Positions 22,592-51,564 of a stretch of DNA of 64,000 nucleotides are shown here, piece after piece. Origin of the DNA: an uncultured virus (IMG/VR IMGVR_UViG_3300030118_003168) (Duplodnaviria; Heunggongvirae; Uroviricota; Caudoviricetes). The notes beneath the pieces were generated by a model. That model had not been told where the DNA came from, did not search any database, and saw nothing but the letters and a program-made list of their open reading frames with translations. The position numbers and the translations under genes were made by a program. The stretch is from IMG/VR virus record IMGVR_UViG_3300030118_003168, positions 1-64,000 of that record. One strand, 5' to 3'. How positions within the stretch are numbered: the stretch's first letter is position 1; each line of letters opens with the position of its first letter.

Positions 22592-22596
22592 TTTAT

Positions 22597-24705: not shown

Positions 24706-26135
24706 ATGAATTAGAAGAGTTCAATTTTGAACATCAAATGGATATGGAGTTATCTAAGAACTCTTTTCCATATTTCTTCCAAAATGTATTAGGTTTTGAT
24801 TTTCCTCCTTATATTCAAGAATGGCATAAATTAATGAACTCTACTCAAAGAACAGTAATTATTTGTTCAAGAGACCACGGAAAATCTGTATTTATGCATT
24901 CATGGGTTGTATGGAAATTAATCTTTGAAGAACCTCCATATCAAATGCTTTATATTTCTTCTAACCAAAAACAGACTTTAGTTCACATGAGAGACATTGA
25001 TAAAATGTTTCAACACCCGATGCTTAAAAAGTTTAAACCTGCAAGAGGTTGGGCTATTGGAAACATTACATTAACTAATGGCAATCAAATACTTGAAAGG
25101 TCGGTTGGTTCACAGATTCGTGGATTACACCCTCAAGAGATTGTTATTGACGACCCTTTGAAAGAGTTTAGTATGACTGGTATTCAAAAGGTTACTGATT
25201 GGTTTTATGGCGACATGATACCAACACTTCACCATACGGCTTCATTGAGGGTAATAGGAACTCCGTTTAGTTATACTGACATTTATCAGCAATTAGCAGA
25301 AAATCCAGCATATACTGTAAACACTTATCCATGCCTCAATGCCCTCAATGAACCCCTTTGGCCTGAAAGATGGAACTATGAAGCATTAATGGCAAGAAAA
25401 GCAGAAGTAGGTTCATTGATGTTTACAAGAGAATATATGTGTGTTCCTATTTCAACAGGAACTTCTCTCTTTAATCCCGAACATTTAGATAATGCTAAGA
25501 ATAAAGATTTAGTCTTAAAACCAATGAAAAGAGAAGGATATAAATATTTTATTGGTATTGACCCTGCTATTTCTACTGATGGTGACTACAATGTAATTAC
25601 TGTCATTGAAATGGACGCTGAAGAAAATAAATCAATAGTTTATGTAGATAGGTCTAAGAATGTTCAGTTTAGAGAGAACATACAAAAGGTAAAACTTTTA
25701 GGTCAAGTATTTAGACCAGAAGTTATTTTGTTTGAAACAAATACATTTGCTAAATCTTTTACACAAGAATTGCGCCAAGTCGCTGACTTAAATGTGCATG
25801 ATTTTAATACTACTCGTAGAAAGAAACAAGAAATAATTTTAAACTTGCAAATGACTTTAGAAAATGGTAAAATGAATTTTCCATACGGTAATGAAGAAAG
25901 TAGGAAGGTAACATCTGTTTTAGTTGAAGAACTATCTATGTTTGCTATTACAGACAAAGGAAAGTTTGAGGGAATAGGGGCGCATGACGATATGGTTATG
26001 AGTCTTGCTTTAGCGAATGCGGCCACTTACCAAGCGTCAGAAACCTTCATACTCCTTGATGATTTAGGTTTGTTTGACGATGATTCAAATGCCGTAAAAC
26101 GGCCAGTAAAGAACGCCATAGGTCTTAACTTTTGA
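24702..26135 (+). CDS. terL: Terminase large subunit
   Basis: SRDHGKS (Walker A), IVIDDP (Walker B), IGTP, FTREYMC, GIDPA nuclease motif, HDDMVMSLALA. Confidence 0.95.
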   Translation: MNELEEFNFEHQMDMELSKNSFPYFFQNVLGFDFPPYIQEWHKLMNSTQRTVIICSRDHGKSVFMHSWVVWKLIFEEPPYQMLYISSNQKQTLVHMRDIDKMFQHPMLKKFKPARGWAIGNITLTNGNQILERSVGSQIRGLHPQEIVIDDPLKEFSMTGIQKVTDWFYGDMIPTLHHTASLRVIGTPFSYTDIYQQLAENPAYTVNTYPCLNALNEPLWPERWNYEALMARKAEVGSLMFTREYMCVPISTGTSLFNPEHLDNAKNKDLVLKPMKREGYKYFIGIDPAISTDGDYNVITVIEMDAEENKSIVYVDRSKNVQFRENIQKVKLLGQVFRPEVILFETNTFAKSFTQELRQVADLNVHDFNTTRRKKQEIILNLQMTLENGKMNFPYGNEESRKVTSVLVEELSMFAITDKGKFEGIGAHDDMVMSLALANAATYQASETFILLDDLGLFDDDSNAVKRPVKNAIGLNF

Positions 26136-33160: not shown

Positions 33161-35680
33161 GTGGTATTATTGAAACTTGGTTCTATTGAAAAGGATAGGC
33201 AACCCTCTATTGAGTTGATGCGCCTTTTTGAAAAGACAAGAGTTGCCTATTTATCAGCCGTTCAAGACCCCGATGAGTATTCGGGTCGCTGGCGTAAAGC
33301 CGTTGAAATGATTGAAGAATCTTATGATGAATTAGATGCCGCAGGTAAAGAGTTAAAGAACTTCATTAGAGAAGAAGAAATAACCGCTAACGAGGTAAAA
33401 GACCCTCAATCATCTAAAGCACAGAATCTATATGAAAAAATTAAACTTGTTAGATATACTTCAAAAATTATTGCTGACCCCTTCGCTGAAATGTTCAAAG
33501 GTAATGTTCTTGAAGAATTATTAAATAATCCTGAAAACATGCTTAAATTTGTGCATTATGCTATGAGGGAAGACAATAAAGCCCTATCAGCAGACATTTT
33601 GGCGATTAAAGACATGCAACCTGACACAATTACGGAGGGTCTTATGGGTCTTGACCTACAAGTGGACGACATACCCCTCTATATTATTGAGCATTACGGG
33701 GATGGAAAAGACTCAAAGAAGGTTGAAAAGAAAGTAAAGGCTGCTATGGATATGTTAGAGTTAATTTTCTTTTCTCAGCACGAAGAAAAAGAATGGGAAG
33801 AACTTCAAGATATTGACATGCAAAAGTCAGAAGAAAAATCAATAGAAGAAAAATCAGTTAGTGATTTTATTATACCTAATAAACCAATGTATCGAATATT
33901 TGAAATAAAAGATATTAATGAATTAAAAGGATTTAGTGGGAACTGGTATATCCAAGAAAAATATGATGGCATGCGTATTCAAATACATAAGTTAGATAAT
34001 AAAATAAAGGTTTATTCTTATAATAAAAAAGATATAACTGAAAAGTGTGATGAAATAGTTAAAGAACTAAAGAAGAAAGAATATGGAGATTGTATCTTTG
34101 ATGCTGAACTTATTCTATTTGATGGGGAAGAAGCACTTCATAGAGCCGATACAATCGCTCATGTATTCAAAGGTAAATATAAAGATGCTAAATTAAAATG
34201 TCATGTCTTTGATATTATGCGACATGAAACACAGACATTACTTGATGAAGAACTTGATAATAGAATGACAATTTTATTCAATAATTATTCTGCTAAATCT
34301 TCAGAATATCTTAATTTCCCTTCAAAGAAAGATACAAGGCAAGCAGATAGTCTTGAAGATTTAGAAGAATATTCAAAAGAAATTATGAATATGCCTACTT
34401 CTGAAGGAGTAGTCATTAAAGACGCTACTTCAACCTACTACTTGGGAACAAAGAAAAATCCTAAGTGGATTAAAATGAAAAAGTTTGTTGATTTAGATGT
34501 TATTGTATTAGATAAGAAAAAGACTAAGAGCAATCTTTATTCTTATACTGTCGGTGTTGGGCCAGTAGATGATGAAACAGGACAAGAAATAGATGGAAGA
34601 AAATATCTAAATGTAGGTAAAGCCCTAAATACAAAAATCGCAGTTGAAGTCGGAGATATTATTAGAGTAAAAGTTGATGAAGTTAAGAAGAAGGGCGATG
34701 GATTTAGTTTATTCTCCGCAAAGGTTATTGAAATACCAGAAGTAGAGCATCCCGATAAATTAGTTACTCTTGAATTATTATCAAAAGATACTAAAAAATC
34801 TTTGAATTATAATGTTGAAGCATTTAAAAAAGGAGTAAAGGTTACTGATTACATTCATGGGGAAACTACTGCTATAATCAAATTTGATACAGATGGTTTT
34901 GTTATTTATGGTTTTGAAGAAAATAATTTAATGTCAAAAAATGCATTAAGAGATATTGATATGTGGAAAGCCAAAGCCGAAGAAATAATGAAAACAAAAC
35001 AAGGTAGACTTACTGTGGCTATTGTAAACTTTTTACAAGAAAAAGGAGATAGAACTCCTAAAGAAGTCCATGATTATTTGAAAGCAAAACACGCTGATAT
35101 ATATGAAACTGTATTAGATTCTCAATTAAGAAAGTTAGGTAAGTGGGCGCAAGAAAGAGAGCATATTAAAATGATAGGTAATAAATTGCATGCTGACCCG
35201 ACAATTAAATTGGCTGATGAAGATAAAATAGAAAAACAATATAAAACTCCTGATGAATATAGAAAAGGTAAATTTAAAATCTATAATAGAGAAGATAATA
35301 ATATTCATTTAGCAATTAGTGTAAATGGCGAAAATATGAATTGGACTATTGATTTAGAAGATGAAGAAGAACTGTTTGATTTATTTGGTGCGGCTGGTAA
35401 ATATCCAGCAGAAGTATCAAAAAATGTAGAAAGAGGAAAAGTTATTGATTCTGGAGATATAGAACTAGGTGTTCAAAAAGACGGCTATCATGAATATTTC
35501 TTGAAAGGAAATAAGTTTGAAACTAAAATGCATATTAGAGTTATTCCTATTGATAATAAGCCGATGTGGTTAGCATGGACTGGATATAAACAAGAACCTG
35601 CTGATACTGAGGGAGATAAAGGAAAGTGGAATATATATGAAGATAGGTATAATAAATTATCCATACCGACTGAGGATTAG
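33161..35680 (+). CDS. lig: ATP-dependent DNA ligase with N- and C-terminal extensions
   Basis: Motif I EKYDGMR, III IFDAEL, IIIa VFDIM, IV EGVVIK, V WIKMKK, followed by an OB domain. Confidence 0.9.
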   Translation: MVLLKLGSIEKDRQPSIELMRLFEKTRVAYLSAVQDPDEYSGRWRKAVEMIEESYDELDAAGKELKNFIREEEITANEVKDPQSSKAQNLYEKIKLVRYTSKIIADPFAEMFKGNVLEELLNNPENMLKFVHYAMREDNKALSADILAIKDMQPDTITEGLMGLDLQVDDIPLYIIEHYGDGKDSKKVEKKVKAAMDMLELIFFSQHEEKEWEELQDIDMQKSEEKSIEEKSVSDFIIPNKPMYRIFEIKDINELKGFSGNWYIQEKYDGMRIQIHKLDNKIKVYSYNKKDITEKCDEIVKELKKKEYGDCIFDAELILFDGEEALHRADTIAHVFKGKYKDAKLKCHVFDIMRHETQTLLDEELDNRMTILFNNYSAKSSEYLNFPSKKDTRQADSLEDLEEYSKEIMNMPTSEGVVIKDATSTYYLGTKKNPKWIKMKKFVDLDVIVLDKKKTKSNLYSYTVGVGPVDDETGQEIDGRKYLNVGKALNTKIAVEVGDIIRVKVDEVKKKGDGFSLFSAKVIEIPEVEHPDKLVTLELLSKDTKKSLNYNVEAFKKGVKVTDYIHGETTAIIKFDTDGFVIYGFEENNLMSKNALRDIDMWKAKAEEIMKTKQGRLTVAIVNFLQEKGDRTPKEVHDYLKAKHADIYETVLDSQLRKLGKWAQEREHIKMIGNKLHADPTIKLADEDKIEKQYKTPDEYRKGKFKIYNREDNNIHLAISVNGENMNWTIDLEDEEELFDLFGAAGKYPAEVSKNVERGKVIDSGDIELGVQKDGYHEYFLKGNKFETKMHIRVIPIDNKPMWLAWTGYKQEPADTEGDKGKWNIYEDRYNKLSIPTED

Positions 35681-35723
35681 TTGTTCTTTATATACCAGTA
35701 AGCAATAAGAAGGGTTGAGAGGA

Positions 35724-36950
35724 ATGGCATCAACGGTAATGCAGAACAATACCCATGATTTCAGGATTCTAAAAAGCGATAATTTAATGATTGGAGGATA
35801 TGCAAGCATTGAAATCGTTGATAAACAAAATGATTTAATCACACTCAAGGCTCTTAATGAAGCAGTTAAAAAATATATGGAGAACCCTAAATTTAGAAAT
35901 GTAATGACAAATCATTCAAATGTTCAAGTTGGGGAAGTAGTAGAATCATATAGAGATAAAACAGGAAGAATATGGAAAACTGAAGTTGATGATGTTGGAT
36001 TCTTTGTTGTAATTAAATTAAGAGATGATATTGAAAAAGCCAAAGAAATAAATAGAGGCATTCGTAAAGGTTCGTTAAGGTCATTTAGTATTGGAGGACA
36101 AGCATTACAAAAAGTAAAGAAAAACCATCCAGAATTAGGTGAATTTAACGAGATAAGCAAACTAGAACTACATGAGGTTACTATCTGTGAAAAAGGCATT
36201 AATCCTGAAGCAAGGTTTGATATTCTAAAACAAGACAAAAATAAGGTGAAAACTATGAGTAAGATTGAGAAAGCATTGGCTGAATTGGACGCTCTTATGG
36301 AGGAAGTTAATACTCTCCGTAAAGAAGAAGAAGATGAAAAGATGATGGACGAAAAAATGATGAACGAAAAAATGATGGAAGACAAAGAATCCATGATGGA
36401 AGAAAAAATGGGCGAAGAAGAAGATGAAAAGATGATGGAAGATAAAGAATCCATGTATGCTGATAAAGAAGCAAAAGCCCTTCTTTCTACTCTTGATGGT
36501 GCAGGTGTTGAAATCGGTGAACCTGCGGATAGAATTGTTATTGACAATGGAACTCCAAAGGCTTCTGATTTGCCAGTAGTAAAGGCATTTAACAACGATG
36601 AACTTGAAACTCTTGATTTGAGCGTTGCAAACATTGAGAAGGCTTATGAAGCATACCGTCAAGAACAACTTGAAAAATTGGCTTATGATAATCTTCAAAA
36701 GTCTTTTGAAACTCGCTTTGCTAATGAAAGAGCAAACCGTGAGAACATTCTCGCAAAGTCGCAGTATGACGCACAAAGCGAAATTTCTTCTCTAAAGGAA
36801 GAATTTACTGCACTTCGCAAGTCTTTGACGGCTGAAAAGGAAACAATCCTAAAGGCTCAAGAAGACGCTACTGTTAAACTCCCATCAATGGAAGAATTGG
36901 CCGAAATGGATTGGTCAGATATTCATAAAATGGTCGGAGGATTTAATTAA
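35724..36950 (+). CDS. Prohead protease fused to scaffold
   Basis: IGGYAS..IVDKQND, NH, SFSIGG and LHEVTICEKGINPEA (HK97-type protease); acidic coiled-coil C-terminus; directly upstream of the MCP. Confidence 0.9.
   Translation: MASTVMQNNTHDFRILKSDNLMIGGYASIEIVDKQNDLITLKALNEAVKKYMENPKFRNVMTNHSNVQVGEVVESYRDKTGRIWKTEVDDVGFFVVIKLRDDIEKAKEINRGIRKGSLRSFSIGGQALQKVKKNHPELGEFNEISKLELHEVTICEKGINPEARFDILKQDKNKVKTMSKIEKALAELDALMEEVNTLRKEEEDEKMMDEKMMNEKMMEDKESMMEEKMGEEEDEKMMEDKESMYADKEAKALLSTLDGAGVEIGEPADRIVIDNGTPKASDLPVVKAFNNDELETLDLSVANIEKAYEAYRQEQLEKLAYDNLQKSFETRFANERANRENILAKSQYDAQSEISSLKEEFTALRKSLTAEKETILKAQEDATVKLPSMEELAEMDWSDIHKMVGGFN
36324..36439 (+). repeat. 26-bp direct repeat within an EKMM low-complexity scaffold linker
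   Basis: GAAGAAGAAGATGAAAAGATGATGGA at 36324-36349 and 36414-36439. Confidence 0.8.
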
Positions 36951-36962: not shown

Positions 36963-38324
36963 ATGACAGGATATATTAACACAATTGCAGATTTAGAAGC
37001 ACAAACATACGGATTAACAGGCCATACTGGTATTAACAACCAATTGCTTAAGCAAGCAGGTTCTATCGCAGGACTTCATACAGGCCATGATGCACCATTA
37101 GGCGTATCATCAACTAATTCCGCAGCAGCAGCAAGTTCGCTTAGTGCTTTGTATAACAAGATTTACGGTCAAAAAGTCTGGTCTATGCTAAACAGGGAAT
37201 GTAATGCACTTTCAGTCATTTCAAAGAGGCCATACACTTCAAGCGGTTGGAGAGTTCTTTCTGAGCGACCTGCTGGTGGTAGCGGTAATTTCCTTGATTT
37301 AACTGGTGTAAATGAAGGAACATCTGATGCGACTATTGGTTCAAATACAATGCGACCCGACTTATTGGGTGGTGTTCCTGAAAATGCGGCACTTTCAACT
37401 GCTGCTGATGGTTTAGCGTCTGTTGCTCCTAAATACGAACTATTGTTCACAAGTCCAAAGATTATTGCTCATCAATTTGAGTTCTCGGAATTGGCTATGG
37501 AAATGGCGCAAATTGACGATGGAATTGGCGATATTAGAGCGCAAATGAGAGAAGACATGGGCAAGCACCATTCAGAAACTCAAAACGCTATGCTCGTTAT
37601 GCCTCTTGAAAACTACAATCTATCGGCTACAAACCAAATTGGAACAATTGAGAGAAACTACACTTCTTTGCTAAAGGTTGTTTCTTCTAAGGAAGAATTA
37701 GATGCTATGGCTGCTGGAACTGTTCTAACTGCTTCAAATTCTGGTGTTGCAGAAATTGAAACTATTTACGGTAAGGCTCGTAGTGCCGCATCTTTCCTTG
37801 ATGCACAGGTTGATTTCGGTGGAGTAGGCTATGCTACTGGAAATGCTCGCTCTTTAACTCTAACTGTTCTAAACAACACAATTAGAGACTTGAGGGTTGC
37901 AGGTGGTTCACCAAAGGTTATTCTAACTGGATATGATACACTTCAAACCATTTCTGACCTATTACAAGCACAAGAGCGATTCATGGACAGAAAAGAAATT
38001 GTTCCTACTGTTAATGGTGTTCGTGGTGTTAAGGGTCAAGAAGTCGGATTTAGAGTTTCAACCTATTACGACATTCCTATGATTCCTGTTGCGGCTATGC
38101 CTTCAACTGGTGCAAATACTTCTTGTATTAGTGATATGCTTTTCCTTGATACAGACCATTTGTGGCTATCTGTTATGAAACCAACTCAATACTTTGAAGA
38201 TGGTATTTCAAACGGAAACCCATTCGGTGTCGGCCATCTTGGAAACAAGGCTCTTTACCGCACTATTGCGGAAGTCGGTTGTTCTTACTTCAAGGGTCAG
38301 GGTAAAATCACCAATTTGCTGTGA
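36963..38324 (+). CDS. Major capsid protein (HK97 fold)
   Basis: 453 aa after the protease; AAGGTGA RBS; PKVILTG, STYYDIPMIP and MLFLDTDHL C-terminal pattern. Confidence 0.88.
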   Translation: MTGYINTIADLEAQTYGLTGHTGINNQLLKQAGSIAGLHTGHDAPLGVSSTNSAAAASSLSALYNKIYGQKVWSMLNRECNALSVISKRPYTSSGWRVLSERPAGGSGNFLDLTGVNEGTSDATIGSNTMRPDLLGGVPENAALSTAADGLASVAPKYELLFTSPKIIAHQFEFSELAMEMAQIDDGIGDIRAQMREDMGKHHSETQNAMLVMPLENYNLSATNQIGTIERNYTSLLKVVSSKEELDAMAAGTVLTASNSGVAEIETIYGKARSAASFLDAQVDFGGVGYATGNARSLTLTVLNNTIRDLRVAGGSPKVILTGYDTLQTISDLLQAQERFMDRKEIVPTVNGVRGVKGQEVGFRVSTYYDIPMIPVAAMPSTGANTSCISDMLFLDTDHLWLSVMKPTQYFEDGISNGNPFGVGHLGNKALYRTIAEVGCSYFKGQGKITNLL

Positions 38325-39037: not shown

Positions 39038-39087
39038 ACCGATACGATTAAGAGGGTGCGCCCTCAATCGTTGCTTGACGGAGTAAG

Positions 39088-39375
39088 ATGAATATGCCGA
39101 GTTGCAGAAGTAGTGGGTTATTAATTGATGATACACAAGTAATTAACGGTCAATGTAAATTGATTTCAATTCATGTTAATAACGATAGTGGCGCACCTTG
39201 TCAAATTAAGGTATTTGATGGGACAGATAATACAGGTAAAGAATTAGCCCGTATTAACTTAGATGGTATTCAAATTCAAAACCTTGAATTTGACATGCAT
39301 GGCGTTATTTGTTCTAATGGAATCTTTTATGAAGAAACAAGTGGCGATGCTAATACTTACATTCATTTCGCTTAA
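39088..39375 (+). CDS. Small beta-rich hypothetical protein
   Basis: ORF track. Confidence 0.65.
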   Translation: MNMPSCRSSGLLIDDTQVINGQCKLISIHVNNDSGAPCQIKVFDGTDNTGKELARINLDGIQIQNLEFDMHGVICSNGIFYEETSGDANTYIHFA

Positions 39376-39384
39376 GGTGATAAT

Positions 39385-39777
39385 ATGGCGGCTTTAAATA
39401 CAGATACAAGATTAGTTATGACTATACTTTTTGTTGGTGCATTAAGTGGAGCAAATGTCTTTGCTTATGCAACATTTGGAACAGGCTTTCCTTATGGCCC
39501 AATAGCACATTCAGTCTTATTTGGATTGGGAACAATAGGTGCAATAATGGTAATGAAAGCATTGTTTGATTTAGCACTTAATGATAAAATAGAGATGTGG
39601 CTATTGGATAGAAAAATTGCGGCTTATTGGGAAAGAAAAGCAAGAGATGAACAACAAAGACAAAAAATGCGTGAAAGCGCAAGACAGTTTGGTGGTTCAA
39701 CACCTTTCTATCAGCCTCAATTACAACAGGAAGAAGAAAATACTGTTGGAAGCGAGTTTTTAGCCACCCTTCAATAA
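39385..39777 (+). CDS. Membrane protein (two TM helices plus coiled coil)
   Basis: Two hydrophobic segments followed by a charged helix. Confidence 0.75.
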   Translation: MAALNTDTRLVMTILFVGALSGANVFAYATFGTGFPYGPIAHSVLFGLGTIGAIMVMKALFDLALNDKIEMWLLDRKIAAYWERKARDEQQRQKMRESARQFGGSTPFYQPQLQQEEENTVGSEFLATLQ

Positions 39778-39790
39778 AGGGGTTGGTTAA

Positions 39791-40009
39791 ATGGTCTTTG
39801 GAGATTTAATGGGTTTTTCCGACTCGGACTACGCATATAATCAACAAAGAGCGCATTCAGCAGATGTTTTCTTTCTCAAGATGAGAGCATGGTTTTGGGG
39901 TAGTTTTGCTACCTTGCTATCTTTCTTCGTTGGTAATATAATGGGTGTTTTTGATATAAATATTATTGGATGGATAATTGAGGGAGTAAAAGGTTTATGG
40001 GGGCATTAA
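39791..40009 (+). CDS. Small membrane protein
   Basis: Hydrophobic C-terminal half. Confidence 0.7.
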   Translation: MVFGDLMGFSDSDYAYNQQRAHSADVFFLKMRAWFWGSFATLLSFFVGNIMGVFDINIIGWIIEGVKGLWGH

Positions 40010-40678
40010 ATGTCATTAATGACAGGATTTGCCATATTAGTTGGTGAAGCAGTTATAGGTTTTTGGAAAAAGGTTCATGCTATTAATTTCGGTGTTTATG
40101 GAGCAACAATGGTGGGAAAAACTACATTAAGTCATCAATTAAGAACAAGGGGAGAAGTGCCGACAATAAATGAAAGAACCGTTGGATTACATAGAGCCTC
40201 AAGAAAAAATGTTAAAATAGATGGAGAATCATGGACAGTTAAAAGTGCTGATATTGGAGGAGAAGCAATATACTGGAAAGAATGGGTTAAAGATATGCAA
40301 AAGCGTAAAGTTAAGTATATTATATTTATGATAGACCACAGACACTTAGATAATTCTTCAAACTTAGACCATCAAGTAGCATGGAAATTTTTAGTTGATA
40401 CAATATGTTCTAATATTTGGCCTACTGGAAGAAAAAAGAAAGAACCTGATTATCCGATGGCAGTAGGAATATGGGCTAATAAATATGATATATGGGGAGA
40501 AAAATATCCATTAAAAGAAGGCCAAACAATAGATAAACATGATATATTTGAACCGTTTAAATATGGAATGAGGCAGTTAAATGATAAAGGAATACCTTGT
40601 TTTAAATATATAGTTTCAGCAAAGTCAGACCCCGAAATGGTATATAGAGGCGTAATGACAATGATAAAAGATTACTGA
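40010..40678 (+). CDS. Small Ras/Arf-like GTPase
   Basis: G1 GATMVGKTT, G2 RTVG, G3 DIGG, G4 NKYD, G5 SAK; N-terminal hydrophobic/amphipathic helix. Confidence 0.88.
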   Translation: MSLMTGFAILVGEAVIGFWKKVHAINFGVYGATMVGKTTLSHQLRTRGEVPTINERTVGLHRASRKNVKIDGESWTVKSADIGGEAIYWKEWVKDMQKRKVKYIIFMIDHRHLDNSSNLDHQVAWKFLVDTICSNIWPTGRKKKEPDYPMAVGIWANKYDIWGEKYPLKEGQTIDKHDIFEPFKYGMRQLNDKGIPCFKYIVSAKSDPEMVYRGVMTMIKDY

Positions 40679-40688
40679 GGAATGAAAG

Positions 40689-41357
40689 ATGTATCAAAAC
40701 CAATTAATAGGACAGAACGCACCGCAACAATTTAATCCAACATTATCACCATTACAACAAGCAAGAGCAAGTGGACAAGTAGTAGAATATAAGTTTACAG
40801 AAGTTAGACCTAAAAAGCAATTAAAAGAACTTATTAAAGTATTAACTGCCGAACCCAAAAAATTATTATTCATTAAATATGGTAAGAAATTTAATTTAAA
40901 AGATAGGTGTGTTGTTTGTGGAATGCATCATGTTTGGGAGCAAGGAGATTATTTAAGACCTCCAATGCCTTTAGATAAAGTGGTTAAAGGCAGACCACTC
41001 ATGGGAACATATTGTCCTAAACATTCTTCTATGTATATGCAATTAGAGATGCTTCAACAACAAATACTGGCAGATAAGCATGGATTAGAGTTTAAGCGAT
41101 TTGTTCCTAAAATGCCAAAGATGATGAAAAGTGGGCCAATTACTGAATTAAGTAAAAAAGATGTAATGGCTCTTACCGCAAGCGGTTGGTTTATTAAGCC
41201 ACCCGCTTTAGACGATAACAGGACGGCAACACAAGAGGTCATTCAACTAATAACTGAAATTAACATAATGACTGAGAGAGTTAGCCATTTAATGCTTAAA
41301 CATCAAATTGAAGCAATTAACTCAACACCAGAAATAAAAGAAACTAAAGAGGAATAG
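40689..41357 (+). CDS. Zn-binding protein with coiled coil
   Basis: CVVC and CPKH motifs. Confidence 0.7.
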   Translation: MYQNQLIGQNAPQQFNPTLSPLQQARASGQVVEYKFTEVRPKKQLKELIKVLTAEPKKLLFIKYGKKFNLKDRCVVCGMHHVWEQGDYLRPPMPLDKVVKGRPLMGTYCPKHSSMYMQLEMLQQQILADKHGLEFKRFVPKMPKMMKSGPITELSKKDVMALTASGWFIKPPALDDNRTATQEVIQLITEINIMTERVSHLMLKHQIEAINSTPEIKETKEE

Positions 41358-41359
41358 AT

Positions 41360-42016
41360 ATGGTATTTGGAACAAGCAACAAAACTGTTTTAGGTGCAGT
41401 TCAACAACAAGGCGACCAGAATTTTAAATCAATGAACAACTTATTATCTTTGCAAGATAATCATGTTGAAGAATTTTTTCAATATCATGGTGAACATTTC
41501 TTAGCCGCACTTGAAAAACTCATGGAAGATGTTATTGAGCGTGTTGTTTCTCAAATGCTCGCAAAACTTTCCTTTGATACTAGCGGTTCATCTATTACTG
41601 TAAATAGAGATGCCTTAAGAGAATACGAAAGAATTACTCAAGAAAACATTGATTTAGATTTACAATTGCTATTACAATCAGCAATCAATACAGAAGTCGT
41701 AAATCAAAGAAAACTTGCGAAGCAACAATACCTTGAATCTCAAGGTTTTAGTGGTGGTGGAATACAACAAATTACTCAACCAACCGCAGGTATGGCAATT
41801 GCAGGATTAACAGGAACAACAGGACAATATCAGCAAATGCAAGGTGCTGTCAATAATGGTTCGGGTTATCCCGTTCCTCCAAGTGGAACAGACGGATATG
41901 GCCGTCCTTATTGGATTGATGCACAAGGTCAAATGAGTTATGAACCACCACAAAGCGGATTACATTTAGGTGCAGGTATTCAAAAGGCTGCTGCTTGGGC
42001 TAAATGGTTAATGTGA
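41360..42016 (+). CDS. Hypothetical protein, Gln/Gly-rich with amphipathic C-terminus
   Basis: ORF track; ends AAAWAKWLM. Confidence 0.7.
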   Translation: MVFGTSNKTVLGAVQQQGDQNFKSMNNLLSLQDNHVEEFFQYHGEHFLAALEKLMEDVIERVVSQMLAKLSFDTSGSSITVNRDALREYERITQENIDLDLQLLLQSAINTEVVNQRKLAKQQYLESQGFSGGGIQQITQPTAGMAIAGLTGTTGQYQQMQGAVNNGSGYPVPPSGTDGYGRPYWIDAQGQMSYEPPQSGLHLGAGIQKAAAWAKWLM

Positions 42017-42027: not shown

Positions 42028-44334
42028 TTGGTTGATTTCTTTTGGGGTAATTCACCCGTTTCTTTTCCTTCTGTATCTAGCAGAATTAAAAAAGAAATGT
42101 TAGAATTTATTCAGGAAGAAAACATTGAATTTATTTCTTATTTACAAATAGCCAAAGATACTTTAGAAGAAAAAGGAGAAAGTTCTAAAGAATTAGTAGA
42201 TGAGTTTATTAAAATTTTTGATGAAATTAAAGCAGATAAGTTAATGCCCTTGATGAGAGGTCACGACGATGGAGAAAAAGCCATTGAAAATTTTACAACG
42301 AGTAAAATCAAAGATAAAACTATTACTAATGAAGAAAATGTTAATTTTTTAAATGAATTAACTGTTGGTGATTTAAGCGATTCTGATAAAATCAATAGAT
42401 TAAGAGGTTTCGGTGCTTTGAAATTTGGTCAAGCATTTGAAACCTTACCTGAATTTGATGCAGATGATTTTCTTAGCACATTCAAAGAAGACGATTATAA
42501 AATAGATATTGATTTAAGATTTCAAGATGTTATTCCTGACGATATGGATGATTATAATAGCGAAATATCTCCAATCAGATTTAGTTATGGTAAAGAAAAT
42601 ATTACATTTACTTCTCCTTATACTGATTCACAAATTATAGATGCTAAAAAAGAACATTTGGTAAATGAAACCAATCAAGAACCTGATTTTACTCCTAAAA
42701 AAACAAAAAGTTATCCTCCAAGAATAGTCAAAACAATGGAAATAAACATACTTGACACAACTGTTGAAGCATTAGAAGATGGTGCAAGAGTAACCGTTGT
42801 TCCTGTTGAATTAATATATAATAAAAATAATAAACTAACTGGTAAGTTTAAAGTTACTGGGGCTGAAAAAGTTTTAAACCACAATAAGTTTATTGATTTG
42901 GCAATTGCTGGTCTTAAAGATAGAAACGATACCATGATTGATAATAGAATTTATGATTTGGGTAGCGAAGGATTGGTAAGAATAGTCAAAGGTAATTTTG
43001 AAGGAGCAGGTCTTACTATAAGAGCCGATAGAAAAACAGAAGATGATATTGCAGATAAATTCTACAAAATGTTTTTACCTATTCAAACAAATGTAATAGA
43101 GCCTATGTTAAGTAATCCTTTAAATGCAATTAATTATCGTGGGGTAGTTAATTTTAAAACAGAAAGAAGTGTAAATAATTCACTAACTCGCAAAATAGAA
43201 AGATTAGCAGAAACTGTTGGTAAAGGAAAGAAAAGCGATTGGAAAGCGGGTAAAGATGAAGACGGAAACCCAAGATTTATTGAAAGTGTTGAAGTTATGG
43301 TGGATGGTAAATTTAAGCGATTAAGTGTTAAACAGGCTCAAGAACTTGAAGGGGAAGCATGGACAAATAAAGATACTAAAGAAAAAATTAGTAATGCTGA
43401 ATATATGGCTTTAGGACAACAACAAAGATTGGCATATACTCCTAATTATTATGTTATTACTATTGATGGAGAAACAAGAACTCCTACTAATGAAGTATCA
43501 ACCACGCATAGAACTATTAAAGCGTATAGATTAAAAAATGCTCCTGAAGATGCTTATGCTGAAAAACCCAAAGCAACCAAAGGATTTTTCCGTAGATTCA
43601 AAGAATCCAATAAAAGAGGCGATTTTGGAAACGCTTATAGCGGATTTAAGAGATTCCTTACAGAAGAAGAAGGAAAACAAAAAATGCAACAAATGGAAGA
43701 GAGACAGGAAGAAGAAAATAAAAAGGAAAAGCCTTCTCAATTTACTCCGTTTAATCAGATATATAGAAAAGGACTTAATTTTACTTTTGAAGGAGACTTT
43801 GTTACAAGAGAAGAATATGAAAAACTTTCTGATAAAGTTAAGGAAAGGAGTAGATTGGTTCTTTTAAACAAAAAAAGAATACAACAGATGAACTTTATTG
43901 ATAAAGATGATTATGAACCTATTTATGAAGAAAGAGAATTAAATCCTGAAGCGGTAGATGAAAAAGGAAAATTGACTCCACAGGCATTAGAAGATGCTAA
44001 GGAACTACAATTTAGAGAAACTCTAAGACAAAGAGAAGCAAAAAGAAGAGTAAGAAAACCTGCTGAAATTGATTCTCCTGCTAAATTCGGTAGAGTTACT
44101 GATAAATCATTAGCCGTAGTAACTGGCCCAGATTATGTATTAAATCCATTAGTTACTTATGCTAATATTCAAGACGCTTTTAAACCTGCAATTTTGCATA
44201 TTGAATTAGTAGTAACAGAAATAGGAGAGTTTTCTTTAAATCCTATGCAAAAAAGAAGAAATGATGAAATGACAAATGTTATTGAGGACATAAGAGAAAA
44301 CTTATCCGTTTTAGAAGATAAATTGGGTGAGTAA
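42028..44334 (+). CDS. Large hypothetical protein (768 aa)
   Basis: TTG start after GAGGTGA. Confidence 0.75.
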   Translation: MVDFFWGNSPVSFPSVSSRIKKEMLEFIQEENIEFISYLQIAKDTLEEKGESSKELVDEFIKIFDEIKADKLMPLMRGHDDGEKAIENFTTSKIKDKTITNEENVNFLNELTVGDLSDSDKINRLRGFGALKFGQAFETLPEFDADDFLSTFKEDDYKIDIDLRFQDVIPDDMDDYNSEISPIRFSYGKENITFTSPYTDSQIIDAKKEHLVNETNQEPDFTPKKTKSYPPRIVKTMEINILDTTVEALEDGARVTVVPVELIYNKNNKLTGKFKVTGAEKVLNHNKFIDLAIAGLKDRNDTMIDNRIYDLGSEGLVRIVKGNFEGAGLTIRADRKTEDDIADKFYKMFLPIQTNVIEPMLSNPLNAINYRGVVNFKTERSVNNSLTRKIERLAETVGKGKKSDWKAGKDEDGNPRFIESVEVMVDGKFKRLSVKQAQELEGEAWTNKDTKEKISNAEYMALGQQQRLAYTPNYYVITIDGETRTPTNEVSTTHRTIKAYRLKNAPEDAYAEKPKATKGFFRRFKESNKRGDFGNAYSGFKRFLTEEEGKQKMQQMEERQEEENKKEKPSQFTPFNQIYRKGLNFTFEGDFVTREEYEKLSDKVKERSRLVLLNKKRIQQMNFIDKDDYEPIYEERELNPEAVDEKGKLTPQALEDAKELQFRETLRQREAKRRVRKPAEIDSPAKFGRVTDKSLAVVTGPDYVLNPLVTYANIQDAFKPAILHIELVVTEIGEFSLNPMQKRRNDEMTNVIEDIRENLSVLEDKLGE

Positions 44335-44335
44335 A

Positions 44336-45637
44336 ATGGGAACAACAATTTCTCCAAGTGACTTTACGGAAATTAATCCGAACTATACTCAAGGTAGGGG
44401 TTTCTATACCAATGCCACAGAAGTAGCCAATTTATTACAAATACCTGCATTTAGTGGAACAACATATCCTACTACTGCTCAAGTAGGGGCTATCATTAAA
44501 AGAGTGGAAGGTATAGTTGATGATAAAGTAAAGCGTTCTTTTAGACCTATTATAACAAAAGATGAATACCATAATTTTGAATTTACAAGAGGCCCAAGAA
44601 ATCATTATTATGGTGGTTATGTAGGATTCATTCAATTAAAACAAATGAAAGTTCGTAAGATAGTTTCACTTCAATTGTGGCAAGGAAGTCATTATGAAGA
44701 AATAGCATCGGCTCAAGCAAAAGTTCTTTTACAGGATAACTTTAGAAATTTAAATTCTATTATTTTAGAATTACCAGATAACGGAGTTTCTTTTGAACTT
44801 CTTTCTGAAAACGATATAACACAATTAGCAGATGATGAATTTTGTAATACCTTTGGTATTAAAACAACATCGGCTGAAATAGTTTCTTTAATAAATGAAT
44901 CATTTCCTTCAACATCACAATATACTGGTGCAACTGCAACAAAAAGCCTTACTTCTTCTAATCTTTCTATTTCTGACTTTTTCTATGCGTCAAAGGACAA
45001 GTCAAACGGCAAGCAAATTAACATATCATCCCTACTTTTGGGTGATGATGGTTCAGATTGTGTCCTCAAGGCAACAATAAAACAGTCATGCACAACAATT
45101 AACTCATCTACTGCCCTTACTGTTGCTGATTCGTCTAAATTAGCCGTAGGTATGGCTATTAGTGGAACAGGTATTACAGGAACAATTACAATTGCTTCAA
45201 TTACTGATGCAACAAATGTTGTATTAAGCGCACCTGCTTCTGCAAGTGGAACTAATGATTTAATATTCACGACAACAGAATCTATACCTACTGTTTGTAA
45301 TTTAACTGAATTTACAGACAAAGAAGATTTAAAAAGACTTGGCTCATACTGGACTATAAATGAAGAAGGGAGAATATTCTTTTTAAGAGACTATCCTTTT
45401 CATACAAATAATTCTGTTATTGTTTCTTATATTGCAGGAGATAATAGAGTTCCTTCTGCTATACATGAAGCCACAACAAAACTTGTTGCTTCTGAAATAA
45501 TAAGAATGGACGACCAAAGTGTATTAATTGCTGAAACTGGTGGAAACATTACTGCAAAAGAAAAGTATGATATTCTTCGTAAAGAAGGAATGGAAATTCT
45601 TAAAGGAAAGGGAGACATAGTTTATTTCTTGGATTGA
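44336..45637 (+). CDS. Putative head-tail adaptor/connector with beta-rich insertion
   Basis: YTNATEVA..L start, VSYIAG..RVPSAIHEAT end (adaptor pattern); position before the tail genes. Confidence 0.6.
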   Translation: MGTTISPSDFTEINPNYTQGRGFYTNATEVANLLQIPAFSGTTYPTTAQVGAIIKRVEGIVDDKVKRSFRPIITKDEYHNFEFTRGPRNHYYGGYVGFIQLKQMKVRKIVSLQLWQGSHYEEIASAQAKVLLQDNFRNLNSIILELPDNGVSFELLSENDITQLADDEFCNTFGIKTTSAEIVSLINESFPSTSQYTGATATKSLTSSNLSISDFFYASKDKSNGKQINISSLLLGDDGSDCVLKATIKQSCTTINSSTALTVADSSKLAVGMAISGTGITGTITIASITDATNVVLSAPASASGTNDLIFTTTESIPTVCNLTEFTDKEDLKRLGSYWTINEEGRIFFLRDYPFHTNNSVIVSYIAGDNRVPSAIHEATTKLVASEIIRMDDQSVLIAETGGNITAKEKYDILRKEGMEILKGKGDIVYFLD

Positions 45638-46375: not shown

Positions 46376-47983
46376 ATGGTAAATAACGAAATATTTTTAG
46401 GAAGCGGAGCAAGCACAACATTTATTCCAGAACAGGATATATTTATTCCTGTTGATGGAACAGGCGGAAGCGCAACATCATTAACAGTAACACCCGATAC
46501 AGCATTTTCGGCTGTTTTTAAATTTGTTCCGAATATTTACATTGGAAGTAATATTGATATTTTTGATGCTTCTAATACTCTTCTTTCAAGTCATACTGTT
46601 GCTTCAAACGCAACAGGAACTATTACTCTTGCAACTGCGGTTGGAACAGGAACTCCTGCTTATGCTTTATTGAGGGCTTATGGTTCTCCTTCGCCTCATC
46701 CTGAAGTAAGTGGCCGACAATGTTTATTGGCTGATAATTTCTTAGGATTGATGGAATCAGTTACATTCCCTAACCTAAGCCAAGAAATTAAACAAATGAA
46801 TCTTGGTCTTGGTGGAACAAGAAACTTCTCTTTCCAGTATAAAGGAATTAGAACTGCTGATAACGGTTCTCTTGCTTTAGTCGCAAATACAGGTTCATGG
46901 CTTTATTACGCTTTTGGGGCTATGGATGCTATTACTTTTGGTAGGAAAACACACCTAACAATTACTTATCCTGCTGATAATGGGCCTCCAACTGGAACTG
47001 CTGATGCAATTTATATTGAAGGAACAAATGCAAATCCGACTGATGGAGTGGCAATAGTTACTGAAACTGGGCCACATTTTTATAGAACAGTAAAAGGCGG
47101 AACAACTCTTGTTCCTCCTGTTGATTTCACTATTTTCCCTGACAGTAATGCAAATAATCAAACTGTGGACTTTGATACTGACGGAAGACCGAAAAACATT
47201 ACTTATACAATTAAAGAACTCAATACTGACCAATTGCCTTCATTCAGTCTTGAACAATCAATGGCTAAAGACCCTGCAAGTTTAACTACAAACGCAAATA
47301 TCGGTGCAAGTCCAAGTCCTCTTGATGAATCAAATAACTTTGTTAGAATAGCAAGAGGTTGTAGAGTCAATTCATTAACAATTGAGGCATCTGAAGGTGA
47401 AGAACTAAAAATGAATATGGATTTAAATGCAAGATTGGTTGATAGTATTAGTGATTTATATGCATCTGCGTCTTTACAAACAAATTATATTTCAAGAGCA
47501 GGTCAAACAGACAATGCTAATTTATTTAATTTCAATGCAGGAACAGCACATGCTTCGCCATTCTTTTTCTCTCAAGGAACATTTAGCGCATTTGGACAAC
47601 AATTCTTGAAAGTTAATTCAGTAAGTATTGCCATTAACAATAACTTATTAGATAAAAGATATATGGGCGGTCATAGAGATATGAAAGAGGGTATTCCTGC
47701 ACAACGCTCATATGAAATTACTTTTGAAGCAGTAGTAACTGATGATTTACTATTCAAAGAAATGCTAAATGAAACAGAAAATACTACGGCTAATCGTGTA
47801 GTTTTTACTTTCACAAAGCCTGACACAAATGAAAGCATTACTTTAGAATTTAAAGATTATTTCCTTGACACGACTGAAATTACTATTCCTGATGATAAAG
47901 GGCCAGTTACTTTTAGTTCTACTATTAAGCCAAGAAACCTACATTCTTGCGTAGTAGTTAGCGATTATGTTCTTTTGGGGTGA
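46376..47983 (+). CDS. Tail tube (major tail) protein
   Basis: GCRVNSLTI, VNSVSIAINNNL and RSYEITFE tube-like motifs; upstream of chaperones and tape measure; no sheath gene seen. Confidence 0.75.
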   Translation: MVNNEIFLGSGASTTFIPEQDIFIPVDGTGGSATSLTVTPDTAFSAVFKFVPNIYIGSNIDIFDASNTLLSSHTVASNATGTITLATAVGTGTPAYALLRAYGSPSPHPEVSGRQCLLADNFLGLMESVTFPNLSQEIKQMNLGLGGTRNFSFQYKGIRTADNGSLALVANTGSWLYYAFGAMDAITFGRKTHLTITYPADNGPPTGTADAIYIEGTNANPTDGVAIVTETGPHFYRTVKGGTTLVPPVDFTIFPDSNANNQTVDFDTDGRPKNITYTIKELNTDQLPSFSLEQSMAKDPASLTTNANIGASPSPLDESNNFVRIARGCRVNSLTIEASEGEELKMNMDLNARLVDSISDLYASASLQTNYISRAGQTDNANLFNFNAGTAHASPFFFSQGTFSAFGQQFLKVNSVSIAINNNLLDKRYMGGHRDMKEGIPAQRSYEITFEAVVTDDLLFKEMLNETENTTANRVVFTFTKPDTNESITLEFKDYFLDTTEITIPDDKGPVTFSSTIKPRNLHSCVVVSDYVLLG

Positions 47984-48744: not shown

Positions 48745-51564
48745 ATGTCCGAAATAGCCACTCTAAATGCCTCTATACTTGGCTTAAGTGGAACTATGGA
48801 AAATTTCATCAAATCATTAGGTAAATTTGAAAAATTTGCTGATTCAACTAAAGGAAAAGTAAAAGAATTAACTAAAGTTCATGATGCTTTAGGTTTAAAA
48901 CTTGAAAATAACGAACTTGTTAGTAAAAGAACTGGGAATAGAGTAAACGAATTTGGTCAAGAAGTTACTAAAGTCGGAGACAAAATGCTCGCTTTTAATA
49001 AAAGAAGTTCTATTCTCAATGAAACTATTAAATCACTAAATAAAAGTAATGAAAGATTTAATTTAGGAATGAAATCTTTCAAAGAGTATCAAAAAAGAGG
49101 CGGAAACTTAGCGGAATATTTAGCGGAATTTATTTCTAGTTCAAGAGAAGAAATTACTATTTTTGGTGTTGAAGCGGCTAAAGCCCGTAAAGTCATGTAT
49201 GGGTTTTTACCGCCTGGAATGTTTAGAATGCTGAATAAAGTTTCTTCAACCCTTCAATTATTCGGTGGTCAATATAGAAAATTAGTAACTGATTCAAGTG
49301 CTGCTAAGGAAGAAATAGAACTTTTAACTGAGGCATTAAAGGTTGCTACTGACGAAACAGAAATTAAAGGATTACAAGAAAGATTAGCCGATTTAGAAAC
49401 ACCTGATAATTTATTTAGTAATGTCTTTAAGGGATTTAAAAAAGTAAAGGGTCTTTTAGATAAGCCATTACCTCTTAATTTTGACCAAGATGGAATCAAT
49501 GAAATGGACACATATGCTCAAAAAGCCAAAGCATTGTTCATGAAAAATTTTACTCTTACATTAACTCCTGATAAAAAATTAGAACTAGCAAGAACCAAAG
49601 ACTTAATTAAAACTTTAAGAAAGCCTATTGATTTTAACTTTGATGAAATGAAGAAGGCAAGAGATAAACAAGCCTCTCTTCTCGGTGTGACTGATAAAGA
49701 TGTTAAAAAAACAAAAAAGGCTTATGAAACTATTACTCAAAAAGTTCAAGATATGGAGGCTAATTTAGTTGCAGTAAGTGTTGCTAATCCTGCTATGGCT
49801 AAAAACTTTAGAAAAACTCTTGATAAATTAAAACAAGACCAAGATAAAGCACATCGAGATATGTTAAATGCTGAAACAGATTACGAGATTGAAGTAGAAA
49901 AAGTTGCGGGTAAAGTGCAAGATAAAGACCCTAATATTCAAAGACTTAAAGACTTAGAAAAAGCACTTGCTACTGAAAAAGAATTAGAAGATGAAGGCAG
50001 AAACGGAATAAGAAAAACTTATACAGATTTATACAGAAATTTAGGTGAAATGCAAGAGGCATTTAAAAAAGGAATGGATAATTCTGAAGCAATTTTACAA
50101 ATAGAAACTTCTATTGGTAAAACAGGTTCTTTAATTTCTGACGCAGAACAAACTATGGAGGCTTTAGTATCAAGAGCAGAAATGTTCCCCGATAATCCTG
50201 AATACTTTGATAGTGTAGTTAAACAACAAGAAGTCATAAATGAATTAATGGAAAGACAGGAAAATTTACAAGGGGCTTTAATTTCAAAGCAAGCCGAAGG
50301 AAAGGGATTAGAGAAACTTAAAAAAGAAATAGTAGAAAATGATTTACTAATTGCTCAAAAAGAAGAGTTTATTATGTTAATGGAAGAAGAAGTAAGATAT
50401 AATAAACAAAAAATAAGTGATGCAAAAGAACTCCTTGCGGCTGGAAATTTAAATAAAAAAGCAACAGAAGCAGCATTCAAAGAAATAGAAGAAAGAGAAT
50501 TAAACATTTCAGGTGCATTCACTAATATACAAGATGCCGAAGAATCTATTGATACTGCAAAAGAAAAGAATGTTGAAGCAGAAGAACAAATTGAAATATT
50601 AAAAGATATGAGGGAAAACTCAATAGATAAACTATTAGAAAAACACCCATTCTTTAGCGGCATCAATAAGTTAAGAAAAGGATTAAAAAAGGTATTACCC
50701 GCACTCGGACAAGCATTGAGAATGTTTATGATGGGCTTCTTATATGTAAGCATGGCAATATTGGCTGTATTAGCCCTTGTTAAATTATTTGGCCCAATCA
50801 TAAAAGAAACCATAGCCAGTATAATAACTGTTATTTCTCCTATTATTGGATTTATTATCGGAGCAGCAAGTATGGTATTTGAAGGAATAAAAAGTATATT
50901 TAATGCATTCTTTGGTGATGGGACTTTTGAAGATGCTATTGACGGATTAATTAAAATTGGTTTAGGGCTTCTTGGAATGGCAATAGGATTAATAGGAGTT
51001 GCTTTAGGGGTTTTGGGAACTCTCCTTATTGCGGGTGCTAAGGCTTTATTTTATAGAGTATATGACTTCCTTAAAGGAATGTTAAAAGATACTAAATCAT
51101 TCTTAAAAGGAATGGCTATTATATTGGGTATAGCAGCAACAATTGTTGCTTTAATTATGGGTGCGCCAGTATTATTTGCATTAGCCATAGGCGTTGCAGT
51201 ATTTAAAGGAGTAAAAATCTTAATTGACCCTATTACTAAGATTATTAAGAAAATTAAAAAAGGAATAGATAAACTAAAGAGTTTATTTAGTTTCAAAGCC
51301 AAAGGTGGCCCTGCTAGTGGATTAACAGTTGTAGGAGAAGAAGGCCCAGAATTAGTTAATTTGCCAAGTGGCTCAAGAGTTCATTCAAATAAGGATTCAA
51401 GAAAAATGGTTGCAAATAGCGGAAGAAGTAATGTTAATAATATAAATATAACAATAAATGCTAAAGATACATCAAGAGCAGAAATGGATAGAATAGCAAA
51501 AGAAGTATCAAGAACAATTACAAATAGTATTCAACGACAGAATAATACTAGCAATTTGAGGTGA
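48745..51564 (+). CDS. Tape measure protein
   Basis: 939 aa; coiled coil, hydrophobic helical C-region, VVGEEGPELV motif. Confidence 0.85.
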   Translation: MSEIATLNASILGLSGTMENFIKSLGKFEKFADSTKGKVKELTKVHDALGLKLENNELVSKRTGNRVNEFGQEVTKVGDKMLAFNKRSSILNETIKSLNKSNERFNLGMKSFKEYQKRGGNLAEYLAEFISSSREEITIFGVEAAKARKVMYGFLPPGMFRMLNKVSSTLQLFGGQYRKLVTDSSAAKEEIELLTEALKVATDETEIKGLQERLADLETPDNLFSNVFKGFKKVKGLLDKPLPLNFDQDGINEMDTYAQKAKALFMKNFTLTLTPDKKLELARTKDLIKTLRKPIDFNFDEMKKARDKQASLLGVTDKDVKKTKKAYETITQKVQDMEANLVAVSVANPAMAKNFRKTLDKLKQDQDKAHRDMLNAETDYEIEVEKVAGKVQDKDPNIQRLKDLEKALATEKELEDEGRNGIRKTYTDLYRNLGEMQEAFKKGMDNSEAILQIETSIGKTGSLISDAEQTMEALVSRAEMFPDNPEYFDSVVKQQEVINELMERQENLQGALISKQAEGKGLEKLKKEIVENDLLIAQKEEFIMLMEEEVRYNKQKISDAKELLAAGNLNKKATEAAFKEIEERELNISGAFTNIQDAEESIDTAKEKNVEAEEQIEILKDMRENSIDKLLEKHPFFSGINKLRKGLKKVLPALGQALRMFMMGFLYVSMAILAVLALVKLFGPIIKETIASIITVISPIIGFIIGAASMVFEGIKSIFNAFFGDGTFEDAIDGLIKIGLGLLGMAIGLIGVALGVLGTLLIAGAKALFYRVYDFLKGMLKDTKSFLKGMAIILGIAATIVALIMGAPVLFALAIGVAVFKGVKILIDPITKIIKKIKKGIDKLKSLFSFKAKGGPASGLTVVGEEGPELVNLPSGSRVHSNKDSRKMVANSGRSNVNNINITINAKDTSRAEMDRIAKEVSRTITNSIQRQNNTSNLR

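Follow-up and report, generated by a model that had tools for sequence, protein, structure and literature searches.

We analyzed a 64,000-nt stretch of DNA (the window; positions 1 to 64,000 of IMG/VR record IMGVR_UViG_3300030118_003168, an uncultured member of the Caudoviricetes) and identified in its late gene block a compact cassette built around a small GTPase of 222 aa. We are confident that this protein is a functional-looking member of the Arf/Sar/SR-beta/G-alpha branch with an N-terminal hydrophobic helix, and that it is always accompanied by two membrane proteins and a Cys/His protein. The five open reading frames (ORFs; 130, 72, 222, 222 and 218 aa) encode g130, g72, the GTPase, the Cys/His protein and g218. 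All lie on the plus strand at spacings of 0-13 nt, with coordinates and order (Table 1) exactly as in an earlier note on this DNA, which had suggested a GTPase-driven egress, lysis or membrane-remodelling system for an archaeal host. The window comes from a magrovirus, a tailed virus of Poseidoniales (Marine Group II, abundant archaea of the ocean), whose record comprises 73,752 bases with a completeness estimate of 78%. Its archaeal nature, as suspected earlier, follows from the nearest named homologue of the GTPase, gp088 of Poseidoniales virus YSH_150918 (77% identity). For the family of that virus, the ICTV profile describes genomes of 90-100 kb with a late morphogenetic block, and a GTPase is not among the annotated genes.

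The GTPase motifs occur in canonical order (G1 GATMVGKTT, G2 R56-T57, G3 DIGGE, G4 NKYD and G5 SAKS), with two insertions at residues 134-150, containing a GRKKKE patch, and 163-177. Across 13 relatives at 71-89% identity, 95 columns are invariant, every motif included. In an alignment of 28 sequences reaching down to ~20% identity, G31, G36, K37, D81, G84, D109, N157 and K158 are invariant, with Thr39 and Asp160 nearly so. For a broader view, we used 80 viral loci with GTPases 83-99% identical (clade A; identities are given as medians to the window proteins). GKT, DxGGE, NK[YFH]D and SAK were present in all 80 clade-A loci, leaving the previously described motif set intact at G1, G3, G4 and G5, and in 119 of 120 homologues among the matches listed. 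In a second clade (B), the P-loop reads GK[ST] in 80/80 loci. The protein nevertheless falls below every curated Pfam cut-off: the best match was Roc (E 0.0066; 17.1 bits versus 27), followed by MMR_HSR1 (0.01), SRPRB (0.027) and Ras (0.047), while Pfam Arf (PF00025) gave no match at E <= 0.1 and PHROG contained no family for it. Because the motifs are kept, yet all Pfam cut-offs are missed and no PHROG exists, we consider the GTPase real but very divergent. Longer, fused forms were not found, which is weak evidence. Among 12 genes compared, the GTPase is the most conserved, with a median identity of 88% versus 72% for the capsid protein.

Using AlphaFold2 with the 28-row alignment, we obtained a model with a predicted local distance difference test (pLDDT) score of 92 and a predicted template modelling score of 0.87; an alignment of 13 close sequences had been too shallow (pLDDT 60). 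The model displays the canonical G-domain order with six strands and five helices, preceded by a helix at residues 2-22. Foldseek retrieved G-alpha-i, Rab and Ras at E ~1e-9. The structural aligner VIA returned Arf6 (Z 18.1, root mean square deviation 2.5, 163 aligned residues), then Sar1, SR-beta (2fh5_B) and the Asgard RagA-like protein LokiRagO (Z 17.5), mimivirus Rab (17.1) and G-alpha-i (16.8), all rows (Z 15-18 over 160-175 residues overall) being tied within the resolution of the tool. A profile of clades A and B alone (nine sequences) matched 8OUN best among PDB entries (E 2.5e-5), followed by Arl8A/B and Arl10B/C (2e-4 to 2e-3), Rab33B (0.017) and SR-beta (0.035). 8OUN is an Asgard ArfR structure entry in bioRxiv 10.1101/2024.02.28.582541, its exact protein and state being unconfirmed. 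With the wider family profile, mini-Gq (8.5e-13), 8OUN (6e-12) and Arl3 (8e-12) were found, while a profile restricted to close relatives lacked the depth for classification and matched just Ras in the N-terminal half (E ~0.08). Within the 28-member family, eight proteins, all from a rare distant clade, pass the Pfam Arf cut-off (best 1.9e-15), and six have SRPRB matches. The named feature-space (Atlas) neighbors of the GTPase are bacterial 'Arf family' G proteins, and a few homologues carry the automatic Joint Genome Institute label 'GTPase SAR1 family protein'. As here, members of the Arf/Sar/SR-beta/G-alpha branch typically have a GKTT P-loop, a switch II beginning with DxGG and an IIFxxD strand, in contrast to Ras and Rab (DTAGQ). 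Both the small-GTPase fold and the Arf/Sar-type identity read from the sequence earlier are thereby borne out, with ArfR and Arl8 among the relatives by profile and Arf6 and Sar1 by VIA. From its sequence, we would call the window protein Arf-like but do not file it as an Arf family member, because it lies below the Pfam cut-off and has Glu for the catalytic Gln.

The start of the GTPase is unambiguous, since the g72 stop codon abuts its ATG and no upstream extension is possible. Residues 1-19 have a Kyte-Doolittle value of 1.63, and residues 2-19 a mean hydrophobicity (H) of 0.93 with a moment of 0.25; a hydrophobic N-terminal stretch is present in 28/28 aligned family members (H 0.65-1.27). 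The helix postulated in the earlier note is thus real as a prediction, hydrophobic rather than classically amphipathic. An amphipathic N-terminal helix freed on GTP binding has been described as the defining Arf feature (bioRxiv 10.1101/2024.02.28.582541). The viral N-terminus looks more like an SR-beta-type anchor than like the Arf amphipathic helix, and Glu13 together with a Gly/Ser/Thr face would fit a helix packed against other membrane helices. The residue after DxGG, read before as DIGGE in place of Arf DVGGQ, is indeed Glu in 80/80 clade-A loci. A 61%-identical relative (P0121) has Gln at this catalytic position, and clade B has Gln in 45, Glu in 24 and Asp in 7 of 80 loci among the motif types listed. 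Tolerance of either an acid or an amide here argues against a dead enzyme.

Co-conservation of the five genes, on which the earlier proposal hinged, was found throughout clade A, and the idea survives this check. The order g95 > g130 > g72 > GTPase > Cys/His protein > g218 is kept in 68 of the 69 loci with enough flank, the exception lacking only a g218 match, and g130 and g72 each occur in 79/80 loci. A lineage with a 64%-identical GTPase shows the same gene order behind protease and capsid genes. When records were selected by their capsid gene instead (35 searched; five further loci left out), the GTPase was present in 26. Each of the nine others stops ~1.3 kb or less from the capsid locus, which leaves the gene present in 26/26 evaluable records. 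One 184,733-base viral record (loci L194/L240) has two capsid genes and two GTPase genes; at about twice magrovirus size, it is a concatemer or chimeric assembly. A search of 185,579 species genomes returned two close-relative loci, both on contigs (L161, L162) of one alphaproteobacterial metagenome-assembled genome labelled Maricaulis, which are presumably mis-binned because both show magrovirus gene order. The 'phages' collection, where near records may be missing, gave no match by DNA or protein.

A representative search recovered 79 clusters at E <= 0.001 among 1.84 billion proteins. Clade B comprises 80 further viral loci with full-length GTPases of 240-264 aa at ~30% identity. They belong to magroviruses as well; in two complete records (101 and 109 kb), the capsid and terminase proteins are 45% and 37-38% identical to those of the window. 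Around the clade-B GTPase, the second gene upstream encodes a protein of ~191 aa with at least one transmembrane (TM) segment in 63/72 loci, and the first a protein of ~82 aa with one TM segment in 53/73, the positional counterparts of g130 and g72. The first gene downstream encodes a homologue of the Cys/His protein (hidden Markov model match in 71/80 loci; hhalign 93%, E 2.8e-7), followed by a Gln-rich protein of ~210 aa with a weak link to g218 and by one of ~81 aa with two TM segments in 44/73 loci. The location differs between clades. The window has the block between the capsid (37.0 kb) and tail tube (46.4 kb) genes, whereas in clade B the large terminase gene (TerL) follows it at a distance of 9 kb and the capsid gene at 22 kb. 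In record G002, for example, the GTPase is found at ~9.3 kb, the terminase at 18.8 kb, the capsid at 32.1 kb and the tail tube at 38.7 kb. The same layout at a different genome position indicates that the block moved as a unit within the late block. This relocation is the best evidence that the block genes work together.

Window ORF 15203-15877, located 24 kb upstream of the block here, has its homologue in the gene adjoining the clade-B block. Besides the GTPase, this 224-aa ORF is the sole flanking gene with a BLASTP match in 80/80 clade-B loci; its homologue (34% identity, E 4e-47) directly follows the clade-B cassette, and it has helix-turn-helix-type matches. We also considered the clade-B block to occupy a classical lysis-cassette position and dropped this idea, as the flanking genes are not identifiable as terminase or portal and TerL lies 9 kb further. 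A distant clade (C) is rare and restricted to short metagenome contigs; for its context, viral scans with distant-family alignments and metagenome scans with P0179 and P0187 returned nothing.

Among 52 window proteins, TM-like segments were detected only in g121, g130, g72, the GTPase N-terminus and the tape measure protein. The two proteins upstream of the GTPase are accordingly membrane proteins, as proposed, with two TM-like segments in g130 and one in g72 (median identity 73.6%). The Cys/His protein probably binds zinc through a CCCH site (C74/C77/C109/H112), in line with the zinc character ascribed to it before. Its invariant residues are C74, G101, T107-Y108-C109-P110 and H112, with R102 near-invariant; C77 is kept in clade A, and clade B has a shifted Cys. 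The protein belongs to a family of 922 relatives, of which the best 120 lack a Pfam domain and are named 'hypothetical' at most. For the window protein itself, we found no PDB sequence relative, no Atlas neighbor above 0.84 and no Pfam or PHROG match. When the GTPase (with GTP and Mg) was predicted in complex with the Cys/His protein, the score was 0.00 and the partner fold uncertain; this result counts neither way. For g218 (median identity 79.7%), the amphipathic C-terminus of the earlier note stood in part: the tail QKaAAWAKWLM is conserved in clade A, while its moment of 0.21-0.29 makes it weakly amphipathic. The soluble protein g95 always leads the block; it has no Pfam or PHROG match and no counterpart detected in clade B, and its membership of the unit is uncertain.

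All genes of the cassette are packed into the late block, with Shine-Dalgarno-like sequences and without room for internal promoters, which suggests that they may be co-expressed with the virion genes. The sole sizeable intergenic gap of the block, a 50-nt stretch preceding g95, contains an imperfect hairpin. A GC hairpin was present in 34 of 56 distinct upstream 70-mers of related loci, where 200 shuffles gave 6.7 on average and 12 at most, and its stem letters vary among loci (17 distinct stem pairs). This hairpin is a possible boundary or regulatory element, such as an RNA element or an operator, at the start of the cassette.

What might the cassette do? Our preferred reading, which we put forward tentatively, is control of virus egress. 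Late in infection, the N-terminal helix of the GTPase would hold the protein at the host cytoplasmic membrane, where this helix would probably pack against those of both small membrane proteins, and the GTPase would cycle between GTP and GDP states. The Cys/His protein, with its invariant G101 and near-invariant R102, and g218 would act as regulator and effector. A GTP-dependent step would then gate or drive a membrane event for progeny release, either timed permeabilization or local remodelling or vesiculation. In this scheme, the cassette would fill the place of bacteriophage holin-type cassettes and of ArvA in haloarchaeal vesicle formation. The egress reading rests on the membrane features, the late-block position and the lack of a recognizable lysis gene: as the earlier note had remarked on holins and endolysins, no lysis-category PHROG and no lysin or holin Pfam family was found in the 56 window ORFs scanned. 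An egress, lysis or membrane-remodelling function of the cassette is plausible on this analysis. The full statement that the block is a core, virus-specific membrane module of magroviruses including a role in egress is one to which we would give a little less than an even chance. A stronger version, in which the cassette is the release machinery of archaeal tailed viruses, the membrane-anchored GTPase acting with its small membrane proteins and a zinc-binding regulator as a GTP-timed switch that breaches or remodels the host membrane, appears doubtful. If true, it would represent a lysis principle that differs from bacteriophage holin-endolysin systems as well as from the pyramids and ESCRT budding known in other viruses of archaea, and an Arf-like membrane machine acting outside Asgard archaea and eukaryotes.

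Several observations weigh against the egress reading. Neither g130 nor g72 matches a holin family in Pfam or PHROG, and holin genes are usually variable, whereas g130 and g72 are 74-82% conserved. With head and tail genes around it in this window, the block would suit a role in morphogenesis just as well. The window GTPase fails all Pfam GTPase cut-offs, with Roc (E 0.0066) as the best match. Neither a clean TM anchor nor the amphipathic helix of Arf matches its helix, given the low moment (0.25) and the invariance of Glu13, and with the catalytic Gln replaced by Glu in all 80 clade-A loci, its hydrolysis behavior is not predictable from sequence. Across clades, homology of the membrane proteins is not demonstrable (hhalign E 0.073 and 0.037), their counterparts being assigned by place, size and topology, and the g218 link is weak (hhalign 23%, E 8.7e-4).

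The strongest competitor, rather unlikely in our view, is a module for morphogenesis or ejection, the proteins of which would build the particle at the membrane or be packed in the head and open the host membrane for DNA entry. Some bacteriophages possess internal or ejection proteins that open the host membrane on infection. In its favor are a location between capsid and tail genes in the window and its relatives, core status (26/26 evaluable records) and a conservation above that of the capsid protein, which is common for structural partners. The clade-B block, however, is 22 kb from the capsid gene, a GTPase requires cytoplasmic nucleotide, the cassette is without similarity to any PHROG structural family, and the sipho-type tape measure already has membrane-active segments. 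A further explanation, which we judge unlikely, is host takeover or exclusion by a membrane-anchored switch that disturbs host targeting, division or signaling, or blocks superinfection. The very high conservation would suggest a conserved partner, the architecture of an N-terminal anchor plus Arf-like G domain resembles SR-beta, and the named feature-space neighbors are bacterial Arf-like G proteins whose role is not known. Yet the genes belong to a late same-strand virion block with promoter room only before g95, and exclusion genes are usually accessory while this cassette is core.

We regard as improbable an ArvA-like vesiculation function, in which the virus supplies a vesicle GTPase (for decoys, non-lytic release or lipid supply) to a host lineage that perhaps lacks ArvA. 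PMC10927574 describes ArvA as an Arf-like GTPase that has an N-terminal helix, is encoded together with the Zn-ribbon protein ArvC and is needed for vesicles, and places it mainly in Halobacteriota, Methanobacteriota and DPANN, its text mentioning neither Thermoplasmatota nor Poseidoniales. On the other hand, PF09845 (OapC) and PF09846 (OapB) had no match in the whole 73.7-kb record or in the Cys/His protein, and naked tailed capsids need no envelope. Finally, a pseudo-GTPase scaffold, with the fold kept, GTP hydrolysis lost and a nucleotide-bound adaptor remaining, is very improbable: Glu replaces the catalytic Gln in 80/80 clade-A loci and Q, E and D alternate in clade B, but invariance of Lys37, Asp81, Gly84 and Asn157-Lys158, with Thr39 and Asp160 nearly invariant, argues for selection on nucleotide and Mg binding, and Ras Q61E hydrolyses GTP faster than the wild type, so that Glu need not disable catalysis.

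We compared the cassette with known systems. Like the Arf family (Arf6, Arl3, Arl8, Sar1 and ArfR 8OUN/8OUM), the viral GTPase shares the fold, the GKTT P-loop, DxGG, IIFxxD and NKxD, as well as an N-terminal helix before strand 1, and this family provides the best profile matches and top structural rows. It differs from Arf in lying below the Pfam Arf cut-off, in having Glu for the catalytic Gln and no Gly2, in a longer and far more hydrophobic helix (H 0.93, moment 0.25), and in its length of 222 aa with two insertions versus ~180 aa. SR-beta, a eukaryotic protein, likewise has an Arf-like G domain after an N-terminal anchor (VIA Z 17.5, tied with Sar1), but the viral protein reaches only 14.3 bits for SRPRB (E 0.027; cut-off 25), and no SR-alpha or SRX neighbor was recognized in the Pfam and PHROG scans. 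Virus-encoded GTPases of the same fold are also found in giant viruses (mimivirus Rab, 5XC5; Z 17.1), and among BFVD structural neighbors, the best 50 of 83 (E <= 0.001) are named giant viruses of eukaryotes except for one unnamed entry at rank 47. In contrast to giant-virus Ras, Rab and Ran, which are recent captures of eukaryotic host genes, the magrovirus GTPase belongs to a tailed archaeal virus, has its own partners and lacks a close cellular relative (two loci in 185,579 genomes, in the one mis-binned assembly). With holin cassettes, the block shares small proteins of one or two TM segments with charged tails and a place inside the late block, but scanning of the 56 ORFs detected neither a holin nor an endolysin family, and its conservation is unusually high. 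We know of no GTPase in holin-based cassettes.

A cellular comparison is offered by ArvA-ArvB-ArvC (OapABC), an operon of Haloferax volcanii also found in other Euryarchaeota and DPANN, with ArvB carrying DUF2073 and ArvC the Zn-ribbon DUF2072 (PMC10927574). Common to the two systems is an Arf-like GTPase that has an N-terminal helix, membrane-binding in ArvA, and shares its operon with a Zn-binding protein; ArvA acts at the membrane of the archaeal cell. Two or three small membrane proteins come in addition in the virus, and its cassette is viral, not chromosomal. A six-frame search of the 73,752-base record gave 0 matches to PF09845 and PF09846, both positive in Haloferax controls, and no hit to an NCBIfam ArvA model was obtained. 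On this comparison, we take the cassette to resemble a membrane switch of the Arf/ArvA type, equipped with its own partners, and not to be an Arv operon. The review PMC10791045 calls the main players in egress of archaeal tailed viruses 'still completely uncharacterized', describes the envelope as disrupted by an uncharacterized system, and reports that the small GTPase OapA (ArvA) drives Haloferax vesicle formation.

In the literature searched, the five-gene cassette has no earlier description. No paper combining magrovirus and GTPase was found in a search that did not cover the original description of YSH_150918 (Zhou et al. 2023, Environ Microbiol). The main texts of the magrovirus papers examined contain no GTP term and the two supplements of Philosof et al. 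no GTPase term, and work joining Poseidoniales, GTPase and virus concerns, by titles and abstracts, Asgard archaea and eukaryogenesis. Arf GTPases have been reported in a putative Asgard mobile region (PMC11529989). Philosof et al. (PMC5434244) place magroviruses third among marine viruses by abundance, behind SAR11 phages and cyanophages. Their cassette represents a core, strongly constrained block with biochemical handles (GTPase, zinc protein and membrane proteins) that is assayable without host culture. It adds a virus of Thermoplasmatota-type archaea to the range over which Arf-like membrane GTPases occur and bears on the spread of membrane-acting small GTPases before and outside eukaryotes.

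Table 1 Features of the cassette and its surroundings, with median identities of clade-A proteins to those of the window.
Feature	Coordinates	Strand	Median identity	Basis or description
Large terminase	24702-26135	+		Pfam/PHROG-type library scans of window ORFs
Portal	27938-29578	+		Library scans
S78 prohead protease	35715-36950	+	79%	Library scans
HK97-type capsid protein	36963-38324	+	72%	Upstream of block
Imperfect hairpin/palindrome	39045-39070	+		CGATT-AA-GAGGG-TGCG-CCCTC-AATCG; in gap ~18 nt before g95
g95, 95-aa soluble protein	39088-39375	+	49%	Leads block
g130, 130-aa membrane protein	39385-39777	+	81.5%	TM-like segments 9-29 and 39-65; charged, Gln-rich C-terminal half
g72, 72-aa membrane protein	39791-40009	+	74%	One TM-like segment, 41-63
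Small GTPase, 222 aa, Arf/Sar/SR-beta-like	40010-40678	+	88%	Motifs, profiles, AlphaFold2 model
Cys/His (CCCH) protein, 222 aa	40689-41357	+	73.5%	Conserved core 72-188
g218, 218 aa	41360-42016	+	80%	Helical N-terminal half, Gln/Gly-rich middle, conserved Trp-rich C-terminal tail
g768	42028-44334		24.5%	
g436	44327-45637		74.8%	
Tail tube protein	46376-47983	+		Downstream of block
Tape measure	48745-51564	+		Library scans
g121			42%	
g108			38%	

The head-side placement assumed in the earlier note agrees with the capsid gene upstream and the tail tube gene downstream of the block. Directly after the cassette, the 768-aa ORF is hypervariable (its median was taken over 21 loci with cover >60%) next to neighboring genes at 72-88%, and its product is possibly a surface or host-contact protein. 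In the prohead protease ORF, the S78 domain is followed by a long Glu/Lys/Met-rich low-complexity stretch of EEKMM-type repeats, probably a fused scaffold. Between the portal and protease genes, and thus within the morphogenetic block, an 839-aa ORF (33161-35680) contains an ATP-dependent DNA ligase domain (Pfam E 8.8e-30). A PAP2-superfamily lipid phosphatase (22588-23172; Pfam E 1.5e-12), encoded shortly upstream of the terminase region, is possibly a second membrane-lipid function in this virus. Lastly, a tRNA-Leu gene (anticodon TAA) is located on the minus strand at 3788-3873, near genes for a UvrD-type helicase (1997-3445) and a pyrimidine-dimer glycosylase (283-975).

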